From Methanotrichaceae archaeon (GTDB taxonomy: Archaea; Halobacteriota; Methanosarcinia; Methanotrichales; Methanotrichaceae), in contig CAWDLW010000022.1 of NCBI GenBank assembly GCA_963803145.1, forward strand, positions 1 through 30,155: DNA of 30,155 nucleotides, in the 5' to 3' direction. Made by a program: the position numbers and the translations under genes. Below, piece by piece: positions 3,200-28,839 of this stretch; position 1 is the stretch's first letter; each line of letters starts with the position of its first letter. The notes under the pieces were generated by a model, which saw only the letters and a list, made by a program, of their open reading frames with translations, searched no databases and was not told where the DNA came from.

Positions 3200-4864
3200 A
3201 TGAAGAAGTCAGGTTTAATTTTTGTCTATTTAATAATAGTTGTAGCTGTATGTCTATCGGGATGCCTGCAGCGAGGGCCTTCTTCAAATAGCAGCTCTGT
3301 GACAGCTTCTCCTGCGACCACAAACCATACGTTCACGAATCCTGCCCCTATGAATATGAGTGCTGCAACAGGGCCCTCCTCAAATGTAGCGATCATCTAT
3401 CTTGCGGCCAAGAATATAGCCTTCAATGAGAGCACTATCACCGTTCCTGCAGGAGCAAACGTTACAGTATACTTCGATAATCAGGATTCAGGGACTCCAC
3501 ATAACTTTGCAGTTTATGATTCGCCTTCTGCATCACAAACGATCTTCCAGGGCAAAATAATCACAGGCCCAGCTAAGGCCACATATACATTCACTGCGCC
3601 ATCCAATCCTGGCACATACTACTTCCAGTGCGATGTTCACCCGACCCAGATGAAAGGCCAATTCATAGTACAGCCTTCGGGAGCCACATCTCAGGCGGGC
3701 ATATCCCAGTCAAACGTATCTGCCTCCCGGACTCAAAATGCAAGCGCTGCAACACAGGCCATACAACAGATGAAGATGTCGGCAAGCGTAAATATCAAGG
3801 ATTATGCCTACGACCCTAGTACAATTACCATTCCGGCTGGAACTTCAGTAACTTGGACAAACCTGGATACTGTTCCGCACACAGTAACAAGCACAAACGG
3901 CAAATTTGATTCGGGGATCTTGGGACAGGGCAGGATATTCAACTATACATTCAGCGATCCTGGGACCTATAATTACTACTGTACAATTCATCCCTATATG
4001 AAGGGCCAGGTTGTTGTGACACCTTATGGCGGACTTTACCCCCAGAGTGAGATTCCAACAGCAGTGCCTATATCGACAACTTCACCTCAGCCGTCCACAA
4101 GAATAACAATAGATCTTTTGGCTAAGAATATAAATTTTGATAAGGACAATATCACAGTTATCGCCGGGGCACAGGTAAATATTAATTTCTTCAACCTCGA
4201 TGTCGGCATGCCTCACAACTTCGCCGTATATGCAAATTCAGGAGCCGATACTGTTATCTATCAGGGACCTGTGATCATAGGACCGAAGCAGATAACATAC
4301 ACATTTAACGCACCCGTAGATCCTGGCATCTATTTCTTCAGATGCGATGTCCATCCTAAAGTAATGACCGGCAATTTCTATGTCGTATCCAAGGATAATC
4401 TTGTGTACCTTACGCCTGGGACAGCTTCCCAGATGCAGCCCGCGAATTCTGTACCTGGCCAGGGAACATCGACTGCAGGCCAGAATGTAACAGCGACGGG
4501 ATCTGGACCTCAAAGCGTTACCGTAGATTTAACTGCGGAAAATATAGCCTTTGATATGAATACAATCACAGCTCCTGCCGGTGCCAGGGTTATTATAAAT
4601 TTCAATAACAAGGACAGCGGCGTCCCTCATAACCTTGCTGTATATACGGATTCTTCTGCAACTACAGCCATCTTCAAAGGCAATATCATCACTGGCCCCG
4701 CCGAGACAACATATACCTTTACAGCACCTTCCCAGGCTGGAACCTACTTCTTCAGGTGCGATATACATCCGACACAAATGACTGGACAGTTCGTAGTAGA
4801 GTCAGCAGGAATCACACAAACGACGAATGTAATGGCCGCGAACATGTCTGGAATGAATATGTGA
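3200..4864 (+). CDS. Lipoprotein with four tandem type-1 copper (cupredoxin) domains
   Basis: Signal peptide with lipobox-like VCLSGC. Four sites: PHN...CDVHPTQM, PHT...CTIHPYM, PHN...CDVHPKVM and PHN...CDIHPTQM. Ser/Thr/Pro linkers with many N-x-S/T sequons and a Met-rich C-terminus. Confidence 0.9.
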   Translation: MKKSGLIFVYLIIVVAVCLSGCLQRGPSSNSSSVTASPATTNHTFTNPAPMNMSAATGPSSNVAIIYLAAKNIAFNESTITVPAGANVTVYFDNQDSGTPHNFAVYDSPSASQTIFQGKIITGPAKATYTFTAPSNPGTYYFQCDVHPTQMKGQFIVQPSGATSQAGISQSNVSASRTQNASAATQAIQQMKMSASVNIKDYAYDPSTITIPAGTSVTWTNLDTVPHTVTSTNGKFDSGILGQGRIFNYTFSDPGTYNYYCTIHPYMKGQVVVTPYGGLYPQSEIPTAVPISTTSPQPSTRITIDLLAKNINFDKDNITVIAGAQVNINFFNLDVGMPHNFAVYANSGADTVIYQGPVIIGPKQITYTFNAPVDPGIYFFRCDVHPKVMTGNFYVVSKDNLVYLTPGTASQMQPANSVPGQGTSTAGQNVTATGSGPQSVTVDLTAENIAFDMNTITAPAGARVIINFNNKDSGVPHNLAVYTDSSATTAIFKGNIITGPAETTYTFTAPSQAGTYFFRCDIHPTQMTGQFVVESAGITQTTNVMAANMSGMNM

Positions 4865-4951
4865 AAGAATATGTGAAAGGCTAACGCTTCAATAGCGAGC
4901 ATATTCAAAGCGAGCTAAAATACTTCCTCTTATTCGAACTGGCGCAAGAAA

Positions 4952-5031
4952 ATAGTAATAGTAAATTAGTAGTGATAGTAAATTAATTAAGGTTGTAAAA
5001 CAATATTGAATTACTTTGAGGAGTTGATGAA
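4952..5031 (+). promoter_or_regulatory. Conserved upstream cassette, copy 1 (TAGTAAATTAATTAAGG...TTACTT..GAGGAGTTGATGA)
   Basis: Aligns with the regions upstream of 7221 and 8194. TATA-like TTAATTAA plus RBS. Confidence 0.6.
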
Positions 5032-6621
5032 TTGATTAAAAATCCTTCGATTAAAGCATTGGCGCCTTTGGTCATGCTGGCCATAATCGTTATGCCTGCA
5101 TATGCTGCAGCTGTTGGCGTCCCTCCAGAGGTTACCAATTATTCCAAAGACTGGCCCCTGCCGAACCATGATTATGGAAACACAAGGGCTTCAACAAATT
5201 CTACTATTAACTCAGGGAACGTTAATTCTCTTGGTGTTGCCTGGTCAATGCCGATTGTTGGCATATCAGCTTATGGCGGCGCTGCGAGCACACCATTAAT
5301 TCTGGGGAGTACAATCTACTTCCAGGACCTGAAGAGCAATGTCTATTCCCTTGACCTTAAGACAGGCAAGGTGGATTGGGTTCAGATGCTCAACGATACC
5401 AACTACGGTCCGAATGGTCCGGCTGTCGGATGGGGCAAGGTGTTCATAAACCGGGGTCACTTTAACCTTTCTGCCCTTGATATCAAGTCCGGCAAAGTGC
5501 TTTGGACAACGAGGCTCTCCTATGTGAATACTACCGGCATTGATATCCAGCCCACGATCTATGACGGCATGGTTTATGCTTCGACTGTGCCTGGAACATC
5601 GGATCTGAACTGGTACACTGCTGGTGGTATAGGCATGATTTATGCGCTGGACCAAGATACAGGCAAGGTAAAATGGAATTTCAGTACAGTGGACTCGCCT
5701 AATCTTTGGGGCCATCCAGAGATCAACAGTGGCGGAGGATGCTGGTACACTCCTGCCATTGACTTAAATACGGGCATAATTTATTGGGGCATTGCCAATC
5801 CGGCTCCATTCCCCGGCACCAAAGAATATCCCAATGGAAGCAGCCGCCCGGGTCCCGACCTGTACACTGACAGCATGATGGCTCTGAATCACAGCACTGG
5901 GAGCATGAAGTGGTTTAACCAGGTCTATCCCCATGATCTCTATGATTTCGATCTGCAGATCGCACCAGTTCTTGCCAGTGGAAATGTAAGCGGAAAGCAG
6001 CAGGATATAGTCATCGGCGCTGGCAAGATGGGCAAAGTCTTTGGCTTCAATCGTGAGTCTGGAGCACTGCTATGGTCAACAGCGGTCGGAGAGCATAATG
6101 AAAACGATTCGCTTGACAGGCTCCCCGAAGGGATAACAAGAACAATGCCTGCCGTTACCGGTGGCGTAGAGACGCCCATGGCATATGCAGATGGAATCAT
6201 ATATGTGCCTGTGATCGATAAGTTTGCCGATTGGACTCCTTCCGGCTTCATATCATCAACTTTCAGCTTCAGCACTGGAAGAGGCGGCCTCTGGGCAGTC
6301 AATACCAGCACAGGAAAGGTCCTGTGGTACAAGAAGTTCAATTCGATTGACGTCGGAGGAGCGACTGTTGTCGGTGATCTCGTGTTCACCGCTACATATG
6401 ACGGAACCATTTACGCATTCAAGCGAGATACCGGCGATAATTTATGGACGTATAAAGCACCGGCAGGAATCAATGGTTGGCCTGCAGTCTCAGGCGATAC
6501 AATAATCTGGCCCTGTGGTGTTGGTGGGATGCCATCCTTGATTGCGTTCAGATTGGGGATGCCTAGGCGTATCTTCTCAGTCCATGATGTCAACTGCAAA
6601 AACCAATGTTTCAATGGATAA
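5032..6621 (+). CDS. Secreted PQQ-binding beta-propeller dehydrogenase-like protein (quinoprotein family); C-terminus probably frameshifted
   Basis: Signal peptide, DWPLPNHDYGNTR start, repeated A(L/F)DxxTGKxxW Trp-docking motifs, GGGCW, YWGIANP, DLYTDS, HDLYDFD and GAGKMG. Confidence 0.85.
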   Translation: MIKNPSIKALAPLVMLAIIVMPAYAAAVGVPPEVTNYSKDWPLPNHDYGNTRASTNSTINSGNVNSLGVAWSMPIVGISAYGGAASTPLILGSTIYFQDLKSNVYSLDLKTGKVDWVQMLNDTNYGPNGPAVGWGKVFINRGHFNLSALDIKSGKVLWTTRLSYVNTTGIDIQPTIYDGMVYASTVPGTSDLNWYTAGGIGMIYALDQDTGKVKWNFSTVDSPNLWGHPEINSGGGCWYTPAIDLNTGIIYWGIANPAPFPGTKEYPNGSSRPGPDLYTDSMMALNHSTGSMKWFNQVYPHDLYDFDLQIAPVLASGNVSGKQQDIVIGAGKMGKVFGFNRESGALLWSTAVGEHNENDSLDRLPEGITRTMPAVTGGVETPMAYADGIIYVPVIDKFADWTPSGFISSTFSFSTGRGGLWAVNTSTGKVLWYKKFNSIDVGGATVVGDLVFTATYDGTIYAFKRDTGDNLWTYKAPAGINGWPAVSGDTIIWPCGVGGMPSLIAFRLGMPRRIFSVHDVNCKNQCFNG

Positions 6622-7009
6622 ATCCGCATCCCAGAATCGAACTGTTGCGACTTCTGTGTCATCATCCAAAGCTTCGACCAATCTATCAAACTTAATGCCG
6701 ACAGGTCAGAGTTCGAAGAATGTGGTTATAAACCTGACTGCAAAGAATATTGCTTTTGATAAGAATAGCATCACAGTGCCTGCAGGAGCGCATATCAAAG
6801 TGAACTTCGATAACCAGGATAACGGAATCCAGCATAACATCGCCTTCTATACAGATGCCTCTGCCTCAAAGCTCATCTATGTTGGAGCGATTATTACAGG
6901 CCCTAAGGAGATCACCTATGCCTTTGATGCACCGACCACACCCGGGACGTACTTCTTCAGATGCGATGTTCATCCAACGGTCATGACAGGCCAGTTTGTT
7001 GTGGAGTAA
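6566..7009 (+). CDS. Ser/Thr linker plus cupredoxin domain; probably the +1-frame C-terminal part of the 5032 quinoprotein
   Basis: No signal peptide. AKNIAF...QHN...CDVHPTVM is intact. It overlaps the 5032 ORF end. Deleting one base near 6565 gives IAFRLGMP-GVSSQSMM... Confidence 0.75.
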   Translation, partial: GVSSQSMMSTAKTNVSMDKSASQNRTVATSVSSSKASTNLSNLMPTGQSSKNVVINLTAKNIAFDKNSITVPAGAHIKVNFDNQDNGIQHNIAFYTDASASKLIYVGAIITGPKEITYAFDAPTTPGTYFFRCDVHPTVMTGQFVVE

Positions 7010-7048
7010 ATCGAAATTTCAGTCCACAGGCAATTGAAATTTCGTTTC

Positions 7049-7080: not shown

Positions 7081-7142
7081 ATAATATCTCTGAACCCTCA
7101 TTCTGAGCGTCAGGACATTAATCAAATCATGGCTTTTATGCG

Positions 7143-7220: not shown

Positions 7221-7988
7221 ATGATAAACGAGATCAAAAAGCTTGGTTTGATAATACTATCTCTAGTAATGCTGGCGGTCCTAACCTTGCCTGCATGTAC
7301 AGCACAGACGAGTACAAGTGGTATGCCAACGATAATGATAACTTCGCCAAAAGAGGGAGCAACGATTCCTGCAGGCAATGTCACAATAATGGTCAATGTC
7401 ACGAACTTTAAGCTGGTGAATAAGCTTGGCCAGGCAAATGTTGCTGGCGAGGGCCACGTCCATTACTACATTGATGTCGCAGTTCCAAAGACACCTGGCA
7501 AGCCTGCAACTACGGCCGTAGGCACATTTGCTCCCACACTTAATACAACCTGGATCTGGCCAAATGTTATGCCCGGCAAACATAACTTCTCAGTCCAGCT
7601 TGCGAACAATGACCATACTCCTTTGATTCCGCTGGTCTATAATACAGTCAATGTTACAGTCGTGGCCAATACAACCTTGAAGACGATGGCGGTACAGAAT
7701 ATTGCTATAGGTCTCATAGCCAAGAATATAGCTTTTAACACTTCCACGATCACTGTTCCTGCTGGAGCCAACATCACTGTGAACTTCGATAACCAGGATA
7801 CATACGTACCTCACAACTTCGCCGTCTATACTGATTCATCCGCTACAAAGACCATATTCCAAGGGAAGCAAATTACCGGCCCAGCTAAAACATCATATAC
7901 ATTCACAGCGCCTTCCCAGGCTGGGACCTACTTCTTCAGATGCGATGTTCATCCAACGCAAATGACTGGCCAGTTTATAGTGCAGTGA
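7221..7988 (+). CDS. Secreted protein: His-rich Ig-like (DUF4399-like) domain plus C-terminal cupredoxin
   Basis: Signal peptide, ITSPKEGATI, GHVHYYID...PGKHNFSVQLANNDH, then PHN...CDVHPTQM. GGAGG RBS. Confidence 0.85.
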   Translation: MINEIKKLGLIILSLVMLAVLTLPACTAQTSTSGMPTIMITSPKEGATIPAGNVTIMVNVTNFKLVNKLGQANVAGEGHVHYYIDVAVPKTPGKPATTAVGTFAPTLNTTWIWPNVMPGKHNFSVQLANNDHTPLIPLVYNTVNVTVVANTTLKTMAVQNIAIGLIAKNIAFNTSTITVPAGANITVNFDNQDTYVPHNFAVYTDSSATKTIFQGKQITGPAKTSYTFTAPSQAGTYFFRCDVHPTQMTGQFIVQ

Positions 7989-8005
7989 ATTAAGGCATTT
8001 TGTTT

Positions 8006-8121: not shown

Positions 8122-8193
8122 TAGTAAATTAATTAAAGGAGTAATGCGATATACTAATTGCTCTACGGAGCTACTTCTAAGGAGTTGTTGAGA
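8122..8193 (+). promoter_or_regulatory. Conserved upstream cassette, copy 3, with palindrome GAGTA-N15-TGCTC (8139-8163)
   Basis: TAGTAAATTAATTAAAGGAGTA...TGCTC...CTACTTCTAAGGAGTTGTTGAGA-TTG. Confidence 0.6.
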
Positions 8194-8748
8194 TTGATAA
8201 AAAGTAAAATAGGCTTGATATTGCTGTCCCTAGTGGTATTAGCAATATTTATAATGCCAACATTTGCGCAGGCAAATAATAGTACCAATATGGGAATGAG
8301 CACTGGCAACATTGGTGCCAATACAGGATCCAACAATGTAGTCGTAAACATTATGGCAAAGAATATTGCCTTTAACATGAGCACGATTACAGCGCCTGCT
8401 GGCGCTCAAGTTACTGTCAACTTCAATAATCAGGATTCCGGAATACAGCATAACATTGCCTTCTATACAGATTCCTCTGCCGCAACGACCATTTACAAAG
8501 GCCCGATAACCGCGGGATCAAACATGACCACGTTTACATTTACTGCGCCATCCACGCCAGGTACCTACTTCTTCAGATGCGACGTCCATCCAACTCAAAT
8601 GATCGGCCAGTTTGTGGTAACGCCCATTACAGGTTCCAATACTGGATCTAACACAGGATTAAATACTGGCAGCTCAGGCTCCTCTGGCTCAAGTTCCTCC
8701 GGTTATAGTTCCTCGAGTTCAGGTGGATCTTACGGCTCTGGTTATTAA
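8194..8748 (+). CDS. Secreted single-domain cupredoxin with Ser/Gly-rich tail
   Basis: TTG start at 8194 chosen by analogy with the 7221 upstream region. Signal peptide, QHN...CDVHPTQM, and a GSNT/SSG low-complexity C-terminus. Confidence 0.88.
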   Translation: MIKSKIGLILLSLVVLAIFIMPTFAQANNSTNMGMSTGNIGANTGSNNVVVNIMAKNIAFNMSTITAPAGAQVTVNFNNQDSGIQHNIAFYTDSSAATTIYKGPITAGSNMTTFTFTAPSTPGTYFFRCDVHPTQMIGQFVVTPITGSNTGSNTGLNTGSSGSSGSSSSGYSSSSSGGSYGSGY

Positions 8749-8964: not shown

Positions 8965-9837
8965 ATGTCTAGCAAAATTGGATTATCCATTTTGATCTTA
9001 GCTGTAATACTTTCAGCTACAGTTATCCTGGCGACTAGTCAGTCTACAACGAATAAATCCTTAGCCAACCAAACAGCTTCTAATCAATCAATGACTTCTA
9101 TAGGTGTGTCGACAAAGGCAGGCATAGGCCAGTATCTCGTAGATGGACGAGGCATGTCCCTCTACTATTTTGCAAATGATACTCCTGGATCGAGCACCTG
9201 TTTCACCACACCTTATAATGAAGGCGGCATCCTTCTTCAAACGGTTCCAAATGCGACCACATGTGCTACAGTCTGGCCAGCATTCGATGCCTCTGGAATC
9301 TCAGCGTCCTCTGGGCTAAATAAATCAGACATCACTACTATCAAAAGGGATAGCACTCATATGCAAACTGCACTTAGGGGCTGGCCACTTTATCTCTACC
9401 TGGGAGACAATGCACCAGGAGATACCGACGGCAATGGGGCATTAAAGGGTGAATGGGTGTTAGCCAGGCCTTTCGGCACGGTAAATGTAGCTAATAATCT
9501 CAAAGTTGGAGCTTACCTCACAGATGCCCGGGGAATGACGTTATACTATTACAAGAATGATCAAGGACACATCAAGAACACCTGCACCGACGATTGCGCC
9601 AATAAATGGCCTGCCTTCTATGCTGGGCCTGAGGATATAGCAAGCTCTAAATTGAGCCGCAGCGATTTCAATCACATAATCAAGGATGATAACTACCAGC
9701 AAACAACCTTCAGGGGGTGGCCATTGTACTATTACAGTGGCGATAAGAAGCCTGGAGATATTAATGGCCAGGGGATAGGAGGTGTCTGGTCAGTTGTCAG
9801 TTTGGGTGTCCAGCCAAATATTTTATCCAATCCTTAG
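8965..9837 (+). CDS. Secreted Y-x4-D repeat protein (Lipoprotein_15/COG4315-like), duplicated unit
   Basis: Signal peptide and two units of LxDxRGMxLYY...D...C...C...WP...Q...GWPLYxYxGDxxPGDxxGxG...W. Confidence 0.85.
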   Translation: MSSKIGLSILILAVILSATVILATSQSTTNKSLANQTASNQSMTSIGVSTKAGIGQYLVDGRGMSLYYFANDTPGSSTCFTTPYNEGGILLQTVPNATTCATVWPAFDASGISASSGLNKSDITTIKRDSTHMQTALRGWPLYLYLGDNAPGDTDGNGALKGEWVLARPFGTVNVANNLKVGAYLTDARGMTLYYYKNDQGHIKNTCTDDCANKWPAFYAGPEDIASSKLSRSDFNHIIKDDNYQQTTFRGWPLYYYSGDKKPGDINGQGIGGVWSVVSLGVQPNILSNP

Positions 9838-12291: not shown

Positions 12292-12780
12292 ATGTCAGCC
12301 TATATTAAATTAATAATAGCCTTGTTATCTTTGCTGACGATGACAGCCTTTGCGCAATATGCATACCCCATGCAAGGAGCTACCCCAACTCCAATGTCGA
12401 CATCGCAGACATACACTATAATGACAGCCAATAACTCATCGGTGGGTACTTATCTAACAGATAGTCGTGGCATGACACTATACCATCTTACGACCGATGA
12501 GGGGAAGAATATGAGCACCTGCACTAGCGCCGGCTGCAAAGGGTCTTGGCCGCTATTCTACAATGCGAGCCTAAAGGTTCCTCCAAACCTGAATTCCAGA
12601 GACTTCGGAAACATAACAACCAATGGGAACAAACAGACTACCTATAAAGGATGGCCTCTGTATTATTTCACAGGGGATAAAAAGAATGGAGATATCAATG
12701 GCCAGGGCAAAGGAGGAGTTTGGTCCGTAGTAGATCCTAATAGCCCCAACACATTCCCAACAAGCTTCTCATACAAATAA
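12292..12780 (+). CDS. Secreted Y-x4-D repeat protein (Lipoprotein_15/COG4315-like), single unit
   Basis: GGTGA RBS, signal peptide, LTDSRGMTLY, CTSAGCKGSWP and GWPLYYFTGDKKNGDINGQG. Paralog of 8965. Confidence 0.87.
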   Translation: MSAYIKLIIALLSLLTMTAFAQYAYPMQGATPTPMSTSQTYTIMTANNSSVGTYLTDSRGMTLYHLTTDEGKNMSTCTSAGCKGSWPLFYNASLKVPPNLNSRDFGNITTNGNKQTTYKGWPLYYFTGDKKNGDINGQGKGGVWSVVDPNSPNTFPTSFSYK

Positions 12781-13167: not shown

Positions 13168-13422
13168 TCAAGTACTCTTGGGCGACCCCTTCAGATCTTC
13201 CTTCATCTGCATGTACTGCTCTCTGGTTATCTCACCCTTTGCGTATCTCTCAGCTATAATATCCTCTGCACTTTTGCTGATTGGTTTACTGGGTGCAAGA
13301 ATCTTCTCGTTTTTAATAAGCCTGTAGATGAGATATGCTATCACTATTATAACTATTAACCAGAGTAAACCCATCCCGAATCCCATATAGGGATTCCAAC
13401 CCATCATAGGATAATATGGCAT
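13168..13422 (-). CDS. SHOCT-domain small membrane protein (COG3462-like)
   Basis: MMGW..MGFGMG, a TM helix, and AEDIIAERYAKGEITREQYMQMKEDL. GAGG RBS. Confidence 0.88.
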   Translation of the reverse strand: MPYYPMMGWNPYMGFGMGLLWLIVIIVIAYLIYRLIKNEKILAPSKPISKSAEDIIAERYAKGEITREQYMQMKEDLKGSPKST

Positions 13423-14011: not shown

Positions 14012-15631
14012 CTACATCGTAGTTTGCGTCTTATTCCCTGGAAGCCCAAAGGCAACGATGTAGCCACCTGCGTTAGTAGTCTGACCGCCGCCTGTAGGCA
14101 CGAGCAGCATGCCGTTTCCAATCGATGGTCCGCCTATTCCAACCTGTGCACCAACGTTGAACTCCCACAGTTCCTTGCCGGTATCAGCATCCAGTGCCAT
14201 TAGGATTCCTGAGGATATCTGCGGTGTTTCCGTTGGGCCGCCGAAGTCGGCGCTGTAATTATAAGGTACGCCCATGGAGGTGACGTGGCCTGCGAAGACT
14301 AGCCCGTTGGTCACCAGAGGCGAGCACCATGTTGGATACTCGGTCTTGTACTGCCACTTGATATTGCCTGTCTTGACATCGAGGGCGACGATAGATCCGT
14401 TCCCTATGCCGTTGGTCATGGTCTTGAAGTCAGGGATAACCGTCATTCCGGGTATGTTGAAGAAGATCATTCCCTGATTGCTAACAGCTGCGTATACTGT
14501 GCTGTTATCAAAGGCTGTGAAGTCTTCTATGCCATCGCCAGATCCAGGCCAGGTCGCATTGCCGGTTTTTGAGGGTGTGGAATTTTCATTATACAACACA
14601 GCCAAATTTCTCCACCACATTGGCTTTCCCGTAGCCGCATCGAGGGCAGCTATATCTCCTCTCTTGTCATGGCCTATGACCAACTTCTCCTGAGTCCCGT
14701 TCATATTCACTGTGATCAAGTTGGTTCCCCAGGCCACGTCCCAATCGTGTGTATCAGGATATTTTGCATTGAAGATAGAGCCCTTGGCTACAAAGGGTGT
14801 AGCCCAGAGAACCTTTCCATCGGTTATGTTAACAGCTATGACGTTGCTGGAGTAATTGTTATACCCAGGCCTTGTAGATGCATCGAAGTCTGGCGCAGCA
14901 TTTCCTACAGGTATATAGACTATGCCTTTATCTGTATCAATGGCTCCGCCTGTCCAGGCATCCGCTCCGCCATTCGTGCTGTTATTCAGAGCTCCGGTAA
15001 CCCAGGGGCCGACTGCAAGTGGGATCTGCCAAAGCATCTTTCCTGTCTTCTTATCAAGACCCGTCAAAGAGCCCCTCTCAGGGAAACCGAAGGGCGGCAG
15101 ATCTCCGAGAGCTGATCCAGCTACAACATAGTTCTTCCAGATGAGCGGAGGGGCAGAAATCCTGAAGGCTCCGCCTAATGGTCGCAGCGGCTGGGATTCC
15201 CAGATCTTCTTACCAGTATTCGCATCAAGGGCGACGATAGTCCCAGCGCCGCCTGTGGGCGCATATATGATGCCGTTCTCATAAGTAATGCCATGCGAGG
15301 TTGTTGATCTGGGGAGTTTCACTATAGCCGGAACATTTGGAGTAAACTTCCACTTCGTTAATCCAGTATTCAGGTCAAACGCAATAACCTGCATTAAGGC
15401 ATTGGCCTGAGTATAGCCTGTGTTTCCAACGATCAGCGGAGGGTTCTCAATTGTATTATTGGTGTTGAGTATCCACTTAACTTGCAGCTGATTTACATTA
15501 TTTTTGCCTATTATCGTCTGAGGGCTGTGCCTGGACATGGCGCTATCATAGTTCGTCATTGGCCAGTCCTGGGCAGATACTACTGCTATAGCCAGCAGTG
15601 AGATCAAGGCCAGCAATAATAATTTTTTCAT
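14012..15631 (-). CDS. Second secreted PQQ-binding beta-propeller dehydrogenase-like protein
   Basis: GGAG RBS, signal peptide, DWPMTNYD..SRHSP, ALDxxTGKxxW repeats, GSALGD, GGADAW, YIPVGNAAP, RPGYNNYSS and DTHDWD. Confidence 0.87.
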   Translation of the reverse strand: MKKLLLLALISLLAIAVVSAQDWPMTNYDSAMSRHSPQTIIGKNNVNQLQVKWILNTNNTIENPPLIVGNTGYTQANALMQVIAFDLNTGLTKWKFTPNVPAIVKLPRSTTSHGITYENGIIYAPTGGAGTIVALDANTGKKIWESQPLRPLGGAFRISAPPLIWKNYVVAGSALGDLPPFGFPERGSLTGLDKKTGKMLWQIPLAVGPWVTGALNNSTNGGADAWTGGAIDTDKGIVYIPVGNAAPDFDASTRPGYNNYSSNVIAVNITDGKVLWATPFVAKGSIFNAKYPDTHDWDVAWGTNLITVNMNGTQEKLVIGHDKRGDIAALDAATGKPMWWRNLAVLYNENSTPSKTGNATWPGSGDGIEDFTAFDNSTVYAAVSNQGMIFFNIPGMTVIPDFKTMTNGIGNGSIVALDVKTGNIKWQYKTEYPTWCSPLVTNGLVFAGHVTSMGVPYNYSADFGGPTETPQISSGILMALDADTGKELWEFNVGAQVGIGGPSIGNGMLLVPTGGGQTTNAGGYIVAFGLPGNKTQTTM

Positions 15632-16151
15632 TCATTCTCCTTCTACGCTTTTGAAATGCCATATCAGAAATTATAGGCTGGAGCCACGAATAATCAGCCT
15701 TGCAGTAATGTTTAGTAGACGAAACATGGCATCTTAATCTTAATATCCCATTTACATTCTGGATATAGCATTCTGTAATTAGTTATAATGTGTGAATGTA
15801 TAAACTTATGCCAAATATATTCGCCCTTACCTAGTTATCCATATCAAGGGCGATATTTACTTGATTACTGATCTCAGAACTTTGTTTTATAGATAGCTAA
15901 GCTAAGTTTAAATAAAATGTAGCCAAGACCTTTTGACCAAAAGTAGCTTTAGCACTTTAAAATAGATAGTAGAGTCTAGATCGATATAAAGATGTGATAC
16001 TAGCAGGGTCATCGGAGATCGATATGTTCTGACAATGCAATTATAGCTATAGAACGGAGATCAATGATAGGGACTCATGGCAGCGCGATATAATATCCAT
16101 AGGCAATAGGCTTAAGCCATATTTTACAGTCTAAAAGATTCAGAATTTATT

Positions 16152-21003: not shown

Positions 21004-21495
21004 TTGATAATCAATAGAGAACTATGGATAATTAAATCGGATCATCAGAAATTGCTGGACGGCATTGCCCAGCTCGAGAAGAATGCCGATGGCTCCAGAG
21101 AAGATAAATTCAATGCCGTGATGAAGGATAATCTGGATCATATGAGGGCCGAAGAGGATGTATTTTATCTTGCGATTAATCAGCAGGCTCCGGAGGCTAT
21201 GATGAAATCCATTGAGGCGCACAACATCGCCAGAATCTCAATGGATGATCTCTCATTAACGCCAAAGGATGATCCATGGTGGGTAGCTAAGCTGCAGGTC
21301 TTCAGGGACATATCTTTAAGCCATATCCGGGAGGAAGAAGGCCCTATATTTGATATCGCCAAAAGCATTATAGACAACGCTGAGCTTCAAGAGATGGGCC
21401 TGAGATTCCAGCATGCAAAAGGAGCCAGTACACTGCATCAACCCACGTCAGAAGCATCAATAGGCAGCGGCAGGTGGAGTGGTTTTAGCACCTAA
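21004..21495 (+). CDS. Hemerythrin/HHE cation-binding domain protein
   Basis: IKSDH, HMRAEEDVFY, EAHN and HIREEEGPIF di-iron motifs. Start codon uncertain. Confidence 0.85.
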   Translation: MIINRELWIIKSDHQKLLDGIAQLEKNADGSREDKFNAVMKDNLDHMRAEEDVFYLAINQQAPEAMMKSIEAHNIARISMDDLSLTPKDDPWWVAKLQVFRDISLSHIREEEGPIFDIAKSIIDNAELQEMGLRFQHAKGASTLHQPTSEASIGSGRWSGFST

Positions 21496-21615: not shown

Positions 21616-22356
21616 GTGGTTGGATTGAACGGATTCTTCAAGATCCTCCTTCTTTTGGCATTGATTCTAGGATTATCGACTTGTACGCAGGCAAGCGCAC
21701 CTTCGAGCCAGGGATTGCCTCCAGGCAAGCTGATAGATATAAAGAATGGTACGTTCAACCCAGACAACCTTACAGTCCCCCTTAATACGACTGTTACATG
21801 GGCCAACCACGATATGAACCCCATTGATGTAGTTGCTGACGATAGCTCATTCGACTCTGGAGAGATTTACCCCAATGGTTACGAGTATGATTACATCTTC
21901 CTGCAGCCCGGAGCGTACAGGTATCATTCTAAAGAGAAACCATCCATGCAGGGGCAGGTAATTGTTGCCAATGCAAACGGCACTCTGCCCAAGGTTACTG
22001 AGCTGCCTGCGTCTACTGCGCTGGCCAACAAGACCGCTCAAGCCAATAAAACAACTCAGACACAAAAGATAACCATAGGACTTGTGGCCAAGAACATAGC
22101 CTTCAACACCAGCAAGATCACTGTGCCCGCTGATGCTCAGGTAACTATCAACTTCAATAATCAGGACAGCGGCGTGCCCCATAACTTTGCAGTCTATCAA
22201 TCATCCGCAGCCACAAACGCTATATTCAAGGGGCAGATAGTGACCGGCCCCGCTAAGACCACATATACATTCACCGCTCCAGGCAAGCCGGGCACATACT
22301 ATTTCCAGTGCGATGTCCACCCAACTCAGATGAATGGTCAGTTTATGGTACAATAG
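21616..22356 (+). CDS. Secreted two-domain cupredoxin (domain 1 lacks Cu ligands, domain 2 intact)
   Basis: Signal peptide. Domain 1 is a plastocyanin-like fold ending YRYHSKEKPSMQG. Domain 2 is PHN...CDVHPTQM. Start is GTG 21616 or TTG 21625. Confidence 0.87.
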   Translation: MVGLNGFFKILLLLALILGLSTCTQASAPSSQGLPPGKLIDIKNGTFNPDNLTVPLNTTVTWANHDMNPIDVVADDSSFDSGEIYPNGYEYDYIFLQPGAYRYHSKEKPSMQGQVIVANANGTLPKVTELPASTALANKTAQANKTTQTQKITIGLVAKNIAFNTSKITVPADAQVTINFNNQDSGVPHNFAVYQSSAATNAIFKGQIVTGPAKTTYTFTAPGKPGTYYFQCDVHPTQMNGQFMVQ

Positions 22357-22520: not shown

Positions 22521-24125
22521 GTGATCAAGCTTACAGTTCTGCTAGCTGCCTTTGCTGTCATGTTCTTGGTGTTAGTGCTCTACATAGTGCCGCAGCAGGG
22601 TGGGCTGATATCTTCTACGGAACTGCAAACATCTAACCTTCAAGGGGTACCCCCGCAGCTCGAAGAGAATGTGCCCATCCAGGAGGTAGATTTGGGCGGA
22701 CAGGGCAGGTCGATCTTCATCGCCGTTGCAATGCTTGGCCACATTCTCCTCGCCAATCTGCAGCTCGGAGGAGCATGGATCATTCCTCTCACCGAATACC
22801 TTTACCTCAGATCAGGAAAGAAGCGATTTAGGAGACTCGCCAGATCCCAGACGCTTTTCAACGTCATATTCTTCAGCGTAGGGGCTACATGGGCTCTCGG
22901 AGGAATGCTCTTCTTCGCAGGCCTCTTTCCGGTCTTTACCCAAAACATATTCCATATCTACTGGTGGCCTCTATTTATCGAGGCCCTTACCTTCGCAGGT
23001 GAAATATTCTTCCTTTACTCTTACTGGTACACATGGGATAGGATCAGTGATGGGTGGCATCAGTTCCTTGGCTGGGCTCTCGCTGTTGATGTTTTCCTGC
23101 AGATGTTGATGATAGATACCCTGGCAGCTGGCATGCTGACCACAGGGGACAGTACCATAGTATGGGGATATTCGGGAATCCTCACAATGGCATGGAACAC
23201 ACTCATAGCCTGGTGGAGCAACTCAACCGTCTGGTTCCTCACATTCCACAGGCTGGCTGGAGCGGTATCTGTCTATGGTTACATAATAGCTGCACTGGCC
23301 ATGTTCCATTATCTGGATAGAAAGGATCAAGCCTCCAGGGCTTATTGGGACTGGGTAGCCACATACGGCATGGCCTTTGGGCTGCTGGGCCTCGCGTTTC
23401 AGCCCGGGTTCGGGCTCATGTACATGACGCAAATAAATCTCAACCAACCAGCGGCGTTCAACTACATGATGCACGGCCCGAGGGCCTGGGAGATGCTATG
23501 GATGGTAGTGCTTCTCTCAACGCTGCTCATAGTCTCGCTTATATACTTCATAGATCGCCATAAAGGGACACTCTCTAAACAAAGGACTTTCAACATCTAC
23601 CCAATGTGGAAGATACTCCTAGCCTTTGCCGCCTTGGCTTGGTTCATCAACGCGAACCCTGCTTGGTTTGGGACACTCTTCGTAAATAGTCCGAGTGCAG
23701 TGGCCAACCCAGCTGGCGCAATGGTCTATAAGTACATAGCCCTATTTACAATAACAATAATAGCATCATTGGTCGTGGGATCTGCGGTTTTCATACTTGG
23801 GAGCCTCGATGAGCCTGATTGGGGACACATCTCCAAATCTTCCAGGGCGGCTGCCATCATTTCGGCCATCCTGGCTATGTGGGTAATCATAGTCATGGGA
23901 TTCGTGAGGGAATCGGCCAGATCCCCCTGGACTATCTTTCAGATTGTACCCGTGCCTGGAGGGACTGATTACCCGACGCCGATATCCGTATGGGCTATAT
24001 TCCTGATCTGGTTTGGCCTGCTAGGTTTCTCGATTACAGTGTTCTGGTTCGTCTCCAAAGTAACCGCAGAGCATCCTGAAGATGTCGATGTGCTTGAACC
24101 AGCCGCTCAAGCATGGAAGGATTGA
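22521..24125 (+). CDS. cydA: Cytochrome bd oxidase subunit I-like protein (CydA superfamily, non-quinol OR-N-like type), copy A
   Basis: GHILLAN (H19-equivalent), IEALTFAGE (E99/E107-equivalents), FHRL (H186), GAMVYK (candidate Met ligand) and GFVRESARSPW (E445/R448). Multiple TM helices. GTG start at 22521 chosen by alignment with copy B. Confidence 0.82.
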   Translation: MIKLTVLLAAFAVMFLVLVLYIVPQQGGLISSTELQTSNLQGVPPQLEENVPIQEVDLGGQGRSIFIAVAMLGHILLANLQLGGAWIIPLTEYLYLRSGKKRFRRLARSQTLFNVIFFSVGATWALGGMLFFAGLFPVFTQNIFHIYWWPLFIEALTFAGEIFFLYSYWYTWDRISDGWHQFLGWALAVDVFLQMLMIDTLAAGMLTTGDSTIVWGYSGILTMAWNTLIAWWSNSTVWFLTFHRLAGAVSVYGYIIAALAMFHYLDRKDQASRAYWDWVATYGMAFGLLGLAFQPGFGLMYMTQINLNQPAAFNYMMHGPRAWEMLWMVVLLSTLLIVSLIYFIDRHKGTLSKQRTFNIYPMWKILLAFAALAWFINANPAWFGTLFVNSPSAVANPAGAMVYKYIALFTITIIASLVVGSAVFILGSLDEPDWGHISKSSRAAAIISAILAMWVIIVMGFVRESARSPWTIFQIVPVPGGTDYPTPISVWAIFLIWFGLLGFSITVFWFVSKVTAEHPEDVDVLEPAAQAWKD

Positions 24126-25893: not shown

Positions 25894-25950
25894 CTGTCCA
25901 GTTGCTATCAAACTAATGCTATAATATATTCGAGACGAAAGGAGATAAAG

Positions 25951-27225
25951 TTGTACAAGCAAATTTTTGTGGCTCTTGACGGATCAATACACTCTGATCT
26001 TGCTAAAGACGCAGCTCTTTCACTGGCGGAAAAAGGAAGCAGCGTTCATCTGATAGGCTGCCATGCTTATGCAGCCAGCCTTCATCGTACCCGGTTCGGC
26101 GATATGGAGCCAGGACTCCCTGAAGGCTATAGCGGTGAAGGTCTGGTTAACCTTAGGAGGACCCACGAAGGTCTAATAGGAGAGGGCTTGCAGCTAATAT
26201 CGGACTCCTACCTGGAGCCGCTTGTTAAAGGAGCTATTGATAAAGGAATTGAATATGAATGTGCAACTCCCGAGGGACGAAATTATATACAGATCCTCAG
26301 GGCTGCTGGAGAGCGAAAAGCAAATCTTCTCGTCATGGGTGCTCAAGGGCAGGGACGAGCTGAGGGCCTGGGAAGTACGGCCGAACGCGTTCTCCTTTAT
26401 TCTCAGGGAATGGATGTTTTACTGATGCGTAGTCCCTGGAGCTTTGCCGGCAAATCTATTCTCGTTGGCATAGATGGCAGCGTTGATAGCTATTATGCCA
26501 TGATGCGGGCTATAGAGATAGCTAAAGCCTTCAATGCCCAGATCGAAGCGGTTTCAGTCTACGATCCCTTCTTCCATTCGATGGTTTTTAAAAGAATATC
26601 GAAATCATTACCTGAGAAGGCTAAGGAGCATTTTGATTTATCAGCCCAAGAGAAGATTCACGACGATGTAATCGATGAAGGGTTGAAGAGGCTTTACAGC
26701 GACGGGCTGAAGAAGGGCATACGCCTGGCTGATGCTGAGGGTATAAAGGCCCGTGCAGAGGTGCTGGCAGGCAAGGTATGTGCCCAAATTCAGGATTTTG
26801 TCTCTAAGAAAGATATTTCTCTTATCGTTTTGGGTCGTTGGGGACTTCATAAGGAGCAGGAATCAATGATAGGTTCAAATGCTTTGAGGCTTGCCCGATC
26901 GAACCTCCCAAGCGTGCTGATTGTATCTACGGGGGCTTCTCCAGACAATCCAGACAGAATTTCGGGCCAAATTTCTGCAGCAGAGGACGGTGGTGCTTTG
27001 GACATCAATTATGCAAAAAAAGGAGTTGAGCCGCTTGACGCCGAGGTGGTGGTAATGCATAAGACAAAAAGATTTGCTCCGGATTTTCACAGGCATATGC
27101 TTAGAGGCAAGATTCAAGGAAAGATAATCAATATAGGTGAAAGTATATTGATCTATACGGTCGATGAGACCGTTCCTGCCGGTCCTGTAAGAGTGACTGA
27201 ACGAACCAGGCTGGAGGTGCGCTGA
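25951..27225 (+). CDS. Tandem universal stress protein (2x USP) with extra C-terminal beta domain
   Basis: IFVALDGS, LLVMGAQG..GLGSTAERV, ILVGIDGS and LIVLGRWG..IGSNA. GGAG RBS and TTG start. Confidence 0.9.
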   Translation: MYKQIFVALDGSIHSDLAKDAALSLAEKGSSVHLIGCHAYAASLHRTRFGDMEPGLPEGYSGEGLVNLRRTHEGLIGEGLQLISDSYLEPLVKGAIDKGIEYECATPEGRNYIQILRAAGERKANLLVMGAQGQGRAEGLGSTAERVLLYSQGMDVLLMRSPWSFAGKSILVGIDGSVDSYYAMMRAIEIAKAFNAQIEAVSVYDPFFHSMVFKRISKSLPEKAKEHFDLSAQEKIHDDVIDEGLKRLYSDGLKKGIRLADAEGIKARAEVLAGKVCAQIQDFVSKKDISLIVLGRWGLHKEQESMIGSNALRLARSNLPSVLIVSTGASPDNPDRISGQISAAEDGGALDINYAKKGVEPLDAEVVVMHKTKRFAPDFHRHMLRGKIQGKIINIGESILIYTVDETVPAGPVRVTERTRLEVR

Positions 27226-27227
27226 GA

Positions 27228-28151
27228 TTGCAGATCCTATCCCTGCAGGGCATCTCAAAATCTTATGGTAAAAATAGAGTCCTCGATGGCATAGACCTTG
27301 AAGTCTATAAAGGAGAGATATTTGTCCTCCTGGGATCCAATGGCTGTGGAAAATCAACGCTTCTACGGATAATGGCGACTTTGCTCAAGCCTGATTCAGG
27401 TGAAGCATTGCTCTTCGGCTTGAAAAGCAGTCCAGAAATCCTGAAGCATGTTGGGATCATGTTCGACCATACAGCCCACTGGGATAAGCTCACTGGATAC
27501 GAGAATGCCTGGATGTTTGCCCGATCTTACGGCCTTCCCAATAATGTGGCGGCTTCAAGGCTTGATAGCCTCTTCAAATGGATAGGACTTTCTGAAAGAC
27601 GCGATGAAGCTGTTACAGCCTATTCCTACGGCATGAGGCGCAAGCTGTCGCTTATAGAGGCACTTGTACATGAGCCCGATCTGCTTCTGATGGATGAGCC
27701 CTCAATGGGACTGGATTATACATCCCGTTTGGCTATTTATTCTCGTCTTCGGCAGCTGGCAGAGAAGGGCATAGCAATAATATTGTCTACCAACGATGTA
27801 AGCGAGGCCGAGCTCCTGGCCAGCAGAGTCGCCCTCCTAAAAAATGGGCATATTATTGCCCTAGATCAACCTGAGAATCTGGTGTCATCGCTCAATGCTC
27901 TGACCAGGATCGAACTGAAGCTGGCTGTGCCCATATCCATAGAATCCATAAGAGGAATCAGAGGAATAGTGAAGGTAGAAGCGAATGGTGATGAGTTAAG
28001 GATACTTGCGGCCTCAAATCATGATTCACTATCGTCAGTAGTGAAAGAGGTAACAACGCTTGGGGGAGTGATTCAGAAGATCGAGGTAAAGGAGCCCAAT
28101 CTTGGAGATGCATTCCTGAAGTTTGCCGGGGAGGACATCGATGCTGCCTAA
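27228..28151 (+). CDS. ABC-2-type transporter ATP-binding subunit
   Basis: Walker A GSNGCGKST, signature YSYGM, Walker B LLMDEP and C-terminal PNLGDAFL. Confidence 0.93.
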   Translation: MQILSLQGISKSYGKNRVLDGIDLEVYKGEIFVLLGSNGCGKSTLLRIMATLLKPDSGEALLFGLKSSPEILKHVGIMFDHTAHWDKLTGYENAWMFARSYGLPNNVAASRLDSLFKWIGLSERRDEAVTAYSYGMRRKLSLIEALVHEPDLLLMDEPSMGLDYTSRLAIYSRLRQLAEKGIAIILSTNDVSEAELLASRVALLKNGHIIALDQPENLVSSLNALTRIELKLAVPISIESIRGIRGIVKVEANGDELRILAASNHDSLSSVVKEVTTLGGVIQKIEVKEPNLGDAFLKFAGEDIDAA

Positions 28152-28839
28152 CGCTCTATGGCAGGAGGAGATTATTGAGGAGTGCAAGAGCAGAAGATCT
28201 CTTATGACAAAGCTATTGCTTCCTATGATCCTTGTAGGCCCATTGGCCTTGGCCTGGGTTCCACCTGCTATGAGGTCCGGCGGCATGGCGCTGGCAGTGA
28301 TATTTATCGGCATCTTCGGATCATCCATCGGCATTGTAGGTCTGAGAGATTCAAAGATGCTGGAAAGACTGGCTGTGCTCCCGCTTCGTCCTGCAGTCGT
28401 TGTATCCAACTATATTCTGGGAAGATCCATATTTATGGGCGTTCAGCTGGCCCTGCCTCTTGCCTTAATATTATTCGTAGGCCAGTCCCGATCGGTTTCT
28501 ATGAGTTCTATATCGTGGGTCATTCTTTGCTATGTAGCCGCACTGGTATCCGCCAGTGCCCTTGGAACAGTTGTGGCACTTATTTCTCGCTCATCCGGAG
28601 AAGTACACCTGTATGCATTCTTGGCAGTTATTGCAGTTGCCGGCCTTTCCGGCATCCTCCCAGGAACTGGTTCAATTGTCTTGGCCAGGGCTATCTCACC
28701 TTTCTGGCAGCTATCGAATACACTGCTATTTTCGTGGGGTGCATCGGACCTGTATATGCCTGCTGCCGCGCTAATTTCGGGCGCTGTAATTCTCCTAATA
28801 GCCCTGCTCATATCTCCAAGGCTATTCCAGCTAGGTTGA
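28141..28839 (+). CDS. ABC-2-type transporter permease
   Basis: About 6 TM segments and RDSKMLERLAVLPLRP. ATG 28141 overlaps the ATPase end and has a GGAGG RBS. Confidence 0.85.
   Translation: MLPNALWQEEIIEECKSRRSLMTKLLLPMILVGPLALAWVPPAMRSGGMALAVIFIGIFGSSIGIVGLRDSKMLERLAVLPLRPAVVVSNYILGRSIFMGVQLALPLALILFVGQSRSVSMSSISWVILCYVAALVSASALGTVVALISRSSGEVHLYAFLAVIAVAGLSGILPGTGSIVLARAISPFWQLSNTLLFSWGASDLYMPAAALISGAVILLIALLISPRLFQLG

Follow-up and report, generated by a model that had tools for sequence, protein, structure and literature searches.

We analysed a window of 30,155 nucleotides from an archaeal genome that is 99% complete. A preliminary description had called the host a probable methanogen, which is borne out: McrA is present and the nearest named relatives are Methanotrichaceae. 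The parts listed in that description do lie within 26 kb, but as two clusters (3185-9837 and 21004-28839) rather than as one operon; between the clusters are a secreted propeller, two IS630 copies, and unrelated genes (Table 1). The second cluster is also found on another contig of the same assembly (C4), which is 99% identical to window positions 18853-30155 and is probably a strain haplotype; because of this overlap, we rejected the idea of two oxidase copies per organism. (A bacterial promoter scan gave 19 against 16.7, which is chance level; bacterial promoter and terminator models are unsuited to archaea.)

Table 1. Features of the window (strand in the second column)
Position	Strand	Feature	Evidence or remark
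3185..4864	+	Secreted four-domain type-1 cupredoxin, likely lipoprotein	PF13473 x4
5032..7009	+	Propeller A fused to type-1 cupredoxin	PF01011 + PF13473; split by one-base frameshift near 6564
7221..7988	+	Secreted His-rich DUF4399-like domain with type-1 cupredoxin	DUF4399 below cut-off; copper ligands
8158..8748	+	Secreted single type-1 cupredoxin	Copper ligands
8965..9837	+	Secreted Lipoprotein_15 (Yx(FWY)xxD) repeat protein	PF03640
11165..12256	-	IS630-type insertion sequence, TA target, outside the system	DDE_3 + HTH; many copies
12292..12780	+	Second secreted Lipoprotein_15 protein	
13168..13422	-	SHOCT membrane protein	Family not among recurring neighbour families of CydA loci
14012..15631	-	Propeller B, secreted, 8-bladed quinoprotein-type	No fused domain
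16147..17238	-	Second IS630-type insertion sequence, outside the system	
21004..21495	+	Hemerythrin-like protein, cytoplasmic	PF01814; His/Glu pattern
21616..22356	+	Secreted two-domain cupredoxin, proposed electron donor	
22521..24125	+	CydA-like subunit a	~12 membrane helices, no Q-loop
24289..25893	+	CydA-like subunit b	Heme ligands kept; proton-channel glutamates replaced by T, Q
25951..27225	+	Tandem USP protein	Conserved His-rich motifs
27228..28151	+	ABC transporter ATPase	usp-abc module
28123..28839	+	ABC-2 permease	usp-abc module; in 21/63 loci

Searches of the host genome found no CydB, no cytochrome c maturation gene (PF01578), and no COX1, with controls that were positive in 9-11 of 14 genomes (for CydB, PF02322 matched 9 of 14). 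Also, the CxxCH motif occurs in none of the 12 window proteins tested, in agreement with what had been claimed for the secreted proteins. Domain searches bore out the presence of the hemerythrin, tandem USP, SHOCT, and ABC-2 genes. The hemerythrin-like protein, which has a paralogue on contig C51 (85% DNA identity), is a singleton among the neighbours of 63 CydA loci and is probably incidental; on such neighbour counts we rejected both it and the SHOCT protein as core parts. The Lipoprotein_15 protein of the first cluster is probably accessory. Three of 120 propeller-A homologues have its domain attached to the propeller, and we found no relative of the protein among solved structures.

The two secreted quinoprotein-type propellers of the preliminary description were confirmed by PF01011 (154 and 172 bits) and by signal scores. 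Both are 8-bladed with hydrophobic N-termini, and the propeller part of A spans 5032-6621. The segment at 6542-7009 lacks a separate signal peptide and is the C-terminal domain of propeller A. A same-genus orthologue (L089:7253-9226) is an intact propeller-cupredoxin fusion of 658 amino acids. The base at 6564 is missing in the Logan contigs of two of four runs (X1 and X3; the other two have no depth there), so we rejected the view that 5032-7009 is a pseudogene. (The IS630-type element next to the first cluster is also missing from the X1 and X3 contigs.) A paralogue of propeller B, on contig C7, carries a fused cupredoxin as well.

The structural model of propeller A is closest to the quinohemoprotein alcohol dehydrogenase 1kv9 (Z 41.8, rmsd 2.1, 452 residues aligned), and its top 24 structural matches are all quinoprotein dehydrogenases. 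A BamB-like scaffold was rejected as the nearest fold, with about 335 residues aligned versus about 450 for the dehydrogenases. Aligned to 1kv9 and 1kb0, the residues W238, N256, D305, and K332 are kept in 116-117 of 117 propeller-A homologues; we take these to be the stacking tryptophan, the metal-binding asparagine, the catalytic aspartate, and the lysine of the PQQ dehydrogenase pocket. The W, N, D-x-D, K pocket is invariant in both propeller subfamilies, which are 27% identical to each other, and the D-x-D presumably resembles that of lanthanide enzymes. Other pocket features differ. By alignment, propeller A appears to lack equivalents of E70 and R122, with an aspartate near the position of the metal-binding glutamate and S, N, or D at the positions of the Glu, Arg, and Thr that bind the PQQ carboxylates; propeller B retains the first glutamate of this set. 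Neither the alignment nor the homologues show the vicinal Cys-Cys disulfide, and both propellers score far below the 480-bit cut-off of the NCBIfam model TIGR03075 (169 and 165 bits).

These propellers thus share the fold and the pocket residues of type I PQQ dehydrogenases (which use azurin or cytochrome c as acceptor) and of type II quinohemoprotein alcohol dehydrogenases (1kv9, 1kb0), and like the latter they can have a C-terminal one-electron module. In contrast to those enzymes, the module is a type-1 cupredoxin or a DOMON domain instead of cytochrome c. Among the 120 propeller-A homologues, it is a cupredoxin in 46 (with the ligands kept in 43) and DOMON in 37 (with Met and His kept), while none of the 120 has CxxCH or a fused cytochrome c domain. 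That one position can hold either a cupredoxin or a heme-type DOMON is as would be expected for a dehydrogenase. The fusions seem to represent a so far undescribed copper or heme-b version of the quinohemoprotein dehydrogenases.

A further difference from those enzymes is that the host here lacks a PQQ pathway. We found no PqqC-family gene in its genome using PF03070, which matched 6 of 14 control genomes (TIGR02111 was silent even in the control), and its single PqqD-family match lies outside any pqq context. With neither a PqqC-family gene nor the vicinal Cys-Cys, PQQ as the cofactor, which the preliminary description had assumed, is unsupported; the cofactor may be scavenged PQQ or something else.

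That description had also counted nine secreted cupredoxin domains in five coding segments. The count holds, as four cupredoxin genes and one propeller-cupredoxin fusion (the segment at 6542-7009 being part of the propeller gene), and the type-1 ligands His...Cys-x2-His-x2/4-Met are present in eight of the nine. The four ligands are invariant over 19 aligned cupredoxin domains. In the four-domain protein (ligand positions 3500/3629, 3878/3980, 4214/4343, and 4628/4757), three copper loops are of the C-x2-H-x3-M type (CDVHPxxM) and one is of the amicyanin type (CTIHPYM). The DUF4399-like domain and the cupredoxin domain of the next cupredoxin gene both recur near cydA in other methanogens. In the two-domain protein of the second cluster, the N-terminal domain is without copper ligands and the C-terminal domain has a full type-1 site. 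The nearest solved structure to these cupredoxins is auracyanin A from Chloroflexus (E = 6e-12). Auracyanin, tethered to the membrane, serves a respiratory/photosynthetic chain as a blue-copper carrier; here, in contrast, there are 1-5 domains per chain, some of them are fused to propellers, and the host is a methanogen.

As had been noted, the two-domain cupredoxin gene lies directly upstream of two CydA-like genes (165-171 bp), both of which match PF01654 (63 and 71 bits) and which are 51% identical (270/532). Subunit a keeps H72, E152-x6-E159, H241, E462, and R465 (numbered from 22527), the equivalents of H19, E99, E107, H186, E445, and R448, and its model resembles the bd-II CydA 7ose_A (Z 29.9, rmsd 3.5, 357 aligned). 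H72, which corresponds to the active-site ligand His19, is invariant in the clade. The quinol site is indeed missing, as previously claimed: where quinol-oxidising (qOR) enzymes have K252 and E257 of the Q-loop (E. coli numbering), this pair has A310 and M315 in a region of about 14 residues. Two features speak against the mechanism proposed below: no residue aligns clearly with M393, and W441 is missing. In our tree, these proteins form a separate clade (100%, stem 1.5) among unnamed non-qOR rows. The majority of its members are single-copy, and a/b pairs go back to two separate duplications, so we rejected an ancient split. Only b copies have lost the proton-channel glutamates and the active-site residues, which single-copy and a-type proteins retain. 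(On plasmids, we found no relative of the clade covering 80% of the query.)

By sequence, the pair belongs to a tight, OR-N-like clade that is without the quinol site. It differs from qOR1-3 (CydAB) in having no CydB, and from OR-C, which has CxxCH in the C-terminal part of CydA and 8 helices, in having no CxxCH in either copy and about 12 long hydrophobic helices (from the model and hydropathy). The CydAA' of Caldivirga maquilingensis (qOR4a/b) is also archaeal, with two CydA paralogues, b-hemes only, and no CydB, and O2 detoxification is proposed for both systems; however, qOR4a has retained its quinol site and is a quinol oxidase, and the two Caldivirga paralogues are 26% identical versus 51% here. 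This CydA and the OR-N1/N2-like rows of our alignment, which are presumably Nitrospira-like, have in common a short Met-containing loop and a GxMxxK segment. Compared with the OR-N group as its preprint describes it (bioRxiv 10.1101/2021.01.16.426971), both lack the quinol site, CxxCH, and CydB; both form a/b pairs with the proton-channel glutamates, six residues apart, in a only; and the pair is about 50% alike, as stated there for OR-N3a/b. The same text gives OR-N "typical" helix counts of 10 (N3-N5) or 14 (N1, N2); the model and hydropathy suggest about 12 for this CydA. OR-N is also said there to have very few archaeal members, whereas this clade is mostly archaeal and single-copy, and has a cupredoxin rather than cytochrome c as its proposed donor. 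According to the available portion of another paper, O2 reduction is unproven for any OR-N enzyme (PMC10839748).

The tightest partner of the CydA clade is the USP protein, which is found at 40 of 63 loci and, within the family, in 7 of 8 genomes with CydA versus 0 of 97 others. Its role is probably heme delivery or assembly. At Methanomicrobiales loci, a run of ahb-like heme-b genes lies downstream of usp-abc. Heme synthesis is not unique to the CydA module, as 110 of the 234 Methanomicrobiales genomes that lack this module have AhbB. (In the Atlas, the USP protein matched nothing but generic USP clusters; F5, a partner in non-methanogens, matched PNPOx-like split barrels.)

Cupredoxins, propellers, and CydA are found together in several methanogen lineages, far above background. 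Among the 38 loci of the CydA clade in methanogens, 24 have a ligand-complete cupredoxin, 21 have a propeller, and 18 have all three. Because ligand-complete cupredoxins are found in just 113 of 3239 windows of 21.5 kb from the host genome (3.5%), their presence near CydA far exceeds chance. At 15 of the 63 loci, spanning Methanotrichaceae, Methanomicrobiales, and Thermoplasmatales, a ligand-complete cupredoxin is directly upstream on the same strand. In our Methanomicrobiales sample, cupredoxins occur in 17 of 17 genomes with CydA versus 65 of 234 others, and strong PF01011 matches in 10 of 17 versus 15 of 234. Within Methanotrichaceae, at least 8 cupredoxin domains are found in 6 of 8 CydA genomes versus 2 of 97, and propeller B in 5 of 8 versus 5 of 97. 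These counts include kin genomes, which are not independent, and so they are overstated.

The preliminary description had joined the parts into a complete donor-wire-oxidase chain. The gene fusions back the transfer from propeller to cupredoxin, but an obligate three-part unit does not stand: 23 of the 27 family genomes with propeller A (of 105) and 65 of the 82 Methanomicrobiales genomes with cupredoxin have no CydA clade member, cupredoxins or propellers occur at 0 of 24 Asgard, other archaeal, and bacterial loci of the clade, and PF13473 is absent from all three of the non-methanogen genomes examined. Judging from these distributions, the parts are a modular set.

The mechanism that we propose builds on the observed gene content, residue conservation, folds, fusions, and co-occurrence. 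We see an even chance that the CydA pair is a cupredoxin-fed scavenger of O2 or NO, with the propellers and cupredoxins upstream of it and heme provided via USP and ABC-2. The secreted propellers would oxidise external organics and pass the electrons to the fused or neighbouring cupredoxin; the multi-cupredoxin proteins would relay and store electrons; and the CydA pair, a putative heme-b, bd-type reductase of O2 (and possibly NO), would accept them on the outside of the membrane, with type-1 copper proteins and not quinol or cytochrome c as donors. Heme would be supplied or inserted by the USP and ABC-2 proteins encoded behind CydA. We infer every electron-transfer step, the acceptor, this role in heme supply, and the cofactor. 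The main use of the chain would be to clear O2 from the cell surface in oxic periods. Methanogens are strict anaerobes, and the conserved gene set that some of them carry probably burns off oxygen outside the cell.

CydA could instead scavenge O2 with electrons from methanophenazine or quinol at a non-canonical site, beside cupredoxins and propellers that are members of the same oxidative-stress island and do not feed it. We think this unlikely, if worth serious thought. The 24 non-methanogen loci have the clade without cupredoxins; CydA contains two additional membrane helices as well as additional conserved histidines (H178, H261); and in five related archaeal loci cydA is bordered by UbiA, UbiH-like, and methyltransferase genes, which hints at a quinol donor. 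Against it are the 15 loci in three lineages with a cupredoxin directly upstream and the cupredoxins in all 17 Methanomicrobiales carriers; to our knowledge, Methanomicrobiales lack both methanophenazine and quinones. It is highly improbable, in our view, that the CydA-like, USP, and ABC-2 proteins form a membrane module with which anaerobes handle heme or sense redox state, and no oxidase at all. The tightest partners of CydA (USP, ABC-2, Ahb enzymes, and a split-barrel protein) and the anaerobic groups of all its named carriers fit such a module, but the loss of the glutamates only in b copies is the pattern of a two-subunit bd oxidase (bioRxiv 10.1101/2021.01.16.426971).

Two other explanations start from the secreted proteins. 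The cupredoxins and the His-rich DUF4399-like protein might be copper sinks or chaperones, with ABC-2 exporting metal and the propellers as non-catalytic surface scaffolds. Near-identical cupredoxins are strongly expanded, one domain lacks the ligands, a relative has a weak CopI match, and the host does not make PQQ; but the invariant propeller pocket, a fold nearer to the dehydrogenases than to BamB, and the exchange of cupredoxin for DOMON leave this explanation quite improbable. The propeller fusions might also be surface proteins for extracellular electron exchange (direct interspecies electron transfer (DIET), minerals, or humics), with CydA as an optional sink for surplus high-potential electrons; this seems improbable to us. 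Only 4 of the 27 family genomes with propeller A have CydA, and the Methanothrix harundinacea member is a propeller-DOMON fusion. As far as the available parts of the two papers go, cupredoxin and PQQ-domain genes are up in M. barkeri grown by DIET (PMC6315138) and show high expression in M. thermoacetophila (PMC10470525). There, too, secreted PQQ-domain and copper proteins are described in hosts without pqq genes (we liken SqpA of M. thermoacetophila by its description), and electron uptake is proposed, with no link to a non-quinol CydA; blue-copper chemistry in a methanogen, which had been called unexpected, is therefore already in print. However, cupredoxins at 150-680 mV are too positive to reduce methanophenazine at -165 mV (PMC6315138, in the part available), and the operon order cupredoxin-cydA-usp-abc would be left unexplained. 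Our literature searches found no link of methanogen blue-copper or PQQ-domain surface proteins to a non-quinol CydA.

A bolder version of the cupredoxin-fed mechanism, which we regard as rather unlikely, is that at least three methanogen lineages run a complete surface respiration free of cytochrome c and quinones. Propellers with scavenged PQQ or a new cofactor would oxidise outside substrates, blue-copper relays would carry the electrons to a bd-type oxidase that uses cytoplasmic protons, and this small energy-conserving aerobic chain would keep the methanogen active in oxic soil or sediment.

The cupredoxin-fed mechanism is a concrete and testable way for some methanogens to cope with oxygen, and it gives the uncharacterised OR-N oxidases a small test system that is free of cytochrome c. 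Among the named carriers in culture are Methanoculleus chikugoensis for the CydA clade, M. taiwanensis and M. frigidifontis for propeller-cupredoxin, and M. harundinacea for propeller-DOMON. Such propeller fusions in hosts unable to make PQQ matter for how direct interspecies electron transfer is modelled; one of the current models may be built on a protein of the propeller family that has been misnamed.

Every gene reported in the preliminary description is present in the window: two propellers, nine cupredoxin domains, the CydA pair, USP, an ABC-2 permease, and hemerythrin-like and SHOCT genes. The type-1 copper ligand set is complete in eight of the nine cupredoxin domains, but not in the ninth. 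The five cupredoxin coding segments are also present, but one of them (6542-7009) belongs to the gene of the propeller at 5032-6621: the contigs from two sequencing runs (X1 and X3) are one base shorter at position 6564, and the orthologue from the same genus is a single unbroken fusion of 658 amino acids. (Runs X2 and X4 had no depth at this site, and all four runs are from one sediment sample.) The genome encodes two further intact propeller-cupredoxin fusions, on contigs C17 and C7. The fusion on C17 lies beside three tandem, divergently oriented six-bladed propellers of the glucose/sorbosone type, a family whose members in Methanoculleus loci carry a fused fasciclin or cupredoxin domain. 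Elsewhere in the genome are a further cupredoxin, with two domains and CxxHxxM loops, and a secreted DOMON protein that stands alone.

The 26-kb span is two clusters and not one operon, with two IS630 copies in the middle. The two IS630 variants are 78% identical, and the genome contains roughly 15-25 nearly identical copies of each. With the sites in the window empty in the X1 and X3 contigs, this points to recent, active transposition.

Features of the window (contig C22) and of other loci
Feature	Location	Strand	Remark
Propeller A	5032-7009	+	fused cupredoxin
IS630 copy	11165-12256		absent at site in X1/X3 contigs
Propeller B	14012-15631	-	without fused domain
IS630 copy	16147-17238		absent at site in X1/X3 contigs
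93-aa ORF	19712-19993		resembles beginning of longer gene, no family match; possibly a fragment
Cupredoxin	21616-22356		just upstream of CydA pair
CydA subunit a	22521-24125	+	residues numbered from 22527
CydA subunit b	24289-25893	+	
USP	25951-27225		
ABC ATPase	27228-28151		
ABC-2 permease	28123-28839		
Tandem six-bladed propellers	L006:908-7769 (C17)		
Two-domain cupredoxin	C20:135131-136249		
Secreted DOMON protein	C13:76918-77595		
Secreted Cys-rich protein	C8:194113-194820		many CxxC repeats, single CxxCH
PqqD-family protein and neighbour	L097:1453-2503 (C15)		amid transposase remnants
PNPOx-like protein	L083:11576-12268		non-methanogen locus

The host genome (G000; 4.13 Mb, 99.3% complete, 6.8% contaminated), of which the window is the entire contig C22, is that of a methanogen, as had been supposed: its McrA gene is on contig C15, and the nearest named relatives of its CydA and propeller proteins are from Methanotrichaceae. 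Positions 18853-30155 are duplicated at the end of contig C4 and positions 1-1482 at the end of C24, both at 99%. C22 therefore probably represents a strain haplotype, and the organism probably has a single copy of the oxidase genes. These end overlaps may account for part of the contamination. Genome searches found no COX1 or CydB (controls positive in 9 of 14 genomes) and no PF01578 cytochrome c assembly gene (control positive in 11 of 14). CxxCH occurs in 26 ORFs of at least 150 amino acids, of which one, a Cys-rich repeat protein, has a clear signal peptide. The genome has Ahb-like heme-b genes outside the window.

The structure model of subunit a (pLDDT 89.9) has CydA as its best fold match (Z 29.9, rmsd 3.5, 357 aligned). 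By alignment, H19, E99, E107, H186, R391 (as K), E445, and R448 of E. coli CydA all have counterparts. The quinol-site residues are missing, as originally proposed: K252 and E257 are replaced by A310 and M315, and the Q-loop has given way to a short loop plus an added pair of helices. An additional N-terminal helix runs into an outer loop, for a total of about 12 helices. W441 has no counterpart and M393 has no clean partner; the invariant M315 and M399 are candidates. Subunit b keeps the heme ligands and has lost both proton-channel glutamates. The pair fits the text description of OR-N (bioRxiv 2021.01.16.426971), a branch of the bd superfamily without the quinol site or a heme c motif; two other papers call OR-N uncharacterised, with cytochrome c thought to be the donor (PMC12342949, PMC10839748).

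In a profile search with the CydA clade, scores fell sharply after the full-length members. A quick-method tree with long branches flagged (98 rows: 60 locus proteins above 430 amino acids, 35 selected search hits, the two copies in the window, and E. coli) gave the clade 100% support on a long stem, with 98% support for a 43-row, mostly methanogen subclade. Members are mostly single-copy; the Methanotrichaceae and the Methanoculleus-type lineages each gained their a/b pair by a duplication of their own.

We compared 63 named loci of this clade (38 methanogen, 1 Thermoplasmatales, 7 Asgard, 7 unnamed archaeal, and 10 bacterial; many contigs are short), using profiles made from the host's own proteins. 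A ligand-complete cupredoxin was near CydA in 24 of the 38 methanogen loci (background: 113 of 3239 windows of the host genome), an 8- or 6-bladed propeller in 21, and both in 18. Among the 25 methanogen loci of at least 12 kb, 18 had the cupredoxin and 14 the propeller. The cupredoxin was immediately upstream of the CydA gene in 15 of all 63 loci. The profile search found neither in the 24 Asgard, unnamed archaeal, and bacterial loci, and PF13473 was found nowhere in three cupredoxin-free, non-methanogen carrier genomes. Twenty of these 24 loci have a gene for a PNPOx-like split-barrel protein, versus only 2 of the 38 methanogen loci. In non-methanogens, the gene for this unnamed protein of 230 amino acids (L083 and 21 other loci) stands next to cydA and usp or separates the two, and the host genome lacks it; the protein may be a partner that binds heme or flavin.

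USP was found in 40 and the ABC-2 permease in 21 of the 63 loci. In Methanomicrobiales loci, an ahbD-A-B-C-like run follows the usp-abc module; AhbB was above its cut-off in all five loci tested, and the AhbA, C, and D matches were below theirs. We infer a heme-handling role for USP and ABC-2. AhbB alone was counted in the Methanomicrobiales genomes and was above its cut-off in 124 of 251 (G121-G374), so heme-b synthesis may be commoner in this order than thought; one survey gives bd in 24 of 132 Methanosarcinales and the full AhbABCD set in none of 32 Methanomicrobiales genomes (PMC8351635).

Co-occurrence of the three families was also counted across whole genomes. Because these genomes are related to each other and partly repeat the named loci, Fisher values for the counts overstate. 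In Methanotrichaceae, the CydA clade is in 8 of 105 genomes, and USP is in 7, each a CydA carrier. At least 8 cupredoxin domains were found in 6 of the 8 carriers versus 2 of the 97 others. Propeller B (10 genomes) is in 5 of 8 versus 5 of 97; the association of propeller A (27 genomes; 4 of 8 versus 23 of 97) is not significant. In the Methanomicrobiales sample, 17 of 251 genomes carry the clade. All 17 have the window-type cupredoxin, but so do 65 of the 234 others; PF01011 at E 1e-25 is in 10 of 17 versus 15 of 234, and AhbB in 16 of 17 versus 110 of 234. Thus, the oxidase of methanogens nearly always comes with a cupredoxin, but the reverse does not hold.

The closest fold to the propeller A model (pLDDT 90.0) is quinohemoprotein ADH (Z 41.8, rmsd 2.1, 452 aligned); about 335 residues align with BamB. 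W238, N256, H301-D302, D305, D307, K332, and E380 are conserved in 116-117 of 117 homologues, and most show no variation in either subfamily, A or B. In alignments to quinoproteins, the propellers lack the vicinal Cys-Cys, and propeller A lacks partners for E70 and R122. Among its best 120 homologues, none has CxxCH; a cupredoxin is present in 46, DOMON with its Met and His retained in 37, and a Lipoprotein_15 repeat in 3 (one with a cupredoxin too), and 35 have none of these. DOMON domains can ligate heme. Such exchange of copper- and heme-type modules at one position suggests a dehydrogenase with a built-in acceptor. AET65240.1 from Methanothrix harundinacea 6Ac (P0440), a propeller-A protein with DOMON, is labelled "Cytochrome c class I" in NCBI and UniRef and has no CxxCH. 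It may be Mhar_1883, the highly expressed class I cytochrome c on which a DIET (direct interspecies electron transfer) model rests in PMC12072023; in that case, the cytochrome of the model would be a propeller-DOMON protein.

We found no PqqC-family gene in the host genome, and its single PqqD-family match is outside any pqq operon. At L097, a small PqqD-family protein is followed by a prenyltransferase/cyclase-like gene, which looks like a piece of a peptide-modification cluster. Bacteria are known to take up PQQ produced by other organisms. In Methanosarcina barkeri grown by DIET, cupredoxin, PQQ-domain, and bd genes were up and there were no pqq genes (PMC6315138); another paper concerns SqpA and surface copper-binding proteins (PMC10470525). 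Among titles and abstract openings, we found no link between a non-quinol CydA and methanogen cupredoxins, and no description of propeller-cupredoxin or propeller-DOMON fusions. The clade and its context may already appear in Figure 1 and the supplements of the bd-superfamily paper.

A complete chain from donor to oxidase had been proposed. The module is real and conserved in methanogens, and its parts are variants of an OR-N-like bd enzyme, a quinoprotein dehydrogenase, and a blue copper carrier, but the chain itself is putative. In what we consider the most likely mechanism, with about even confidence, the propeller would oxidise a substrate and hand electrons to a cupredoxin, which would pass them via the low-spin heme to the di-heme site of the CydA pair; O2 or NO would be the acceptor, and protons would come from the cytoplasm via E152/E159 of subunit a. 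The main rival is that a membrane carrier, not a cupredoxin, donates electrons to the pair. We think this unlikely, but members of the clade without a cupredoxin exist, and in five related archaeal loci of Promethearchaeota type (L038, L039, L040, L056, and L071), cydA is flanked by genes for a UbiA prenyltransferase, a UbiH-like FAD hydroxylase, a methyltransferase, and a rubredoxin-membrane protein. From these flanking genes, Asgard archaea may have a quinone pathway that depends on O2. One anaerobic Asgard isolate has a bd-like protein (bioRxiv 2025.02.26.640444).

If electrons do flow from propeller to cupredoxin to the CydA pair, then the chain would be electrogenic; the cautious reading is scavenging. 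On the boldest reading, which we regard as improbable, methanogens would run a complete, energy-conserving aerobic respiration on their outer surface, free of both cytochrome c and quinones.
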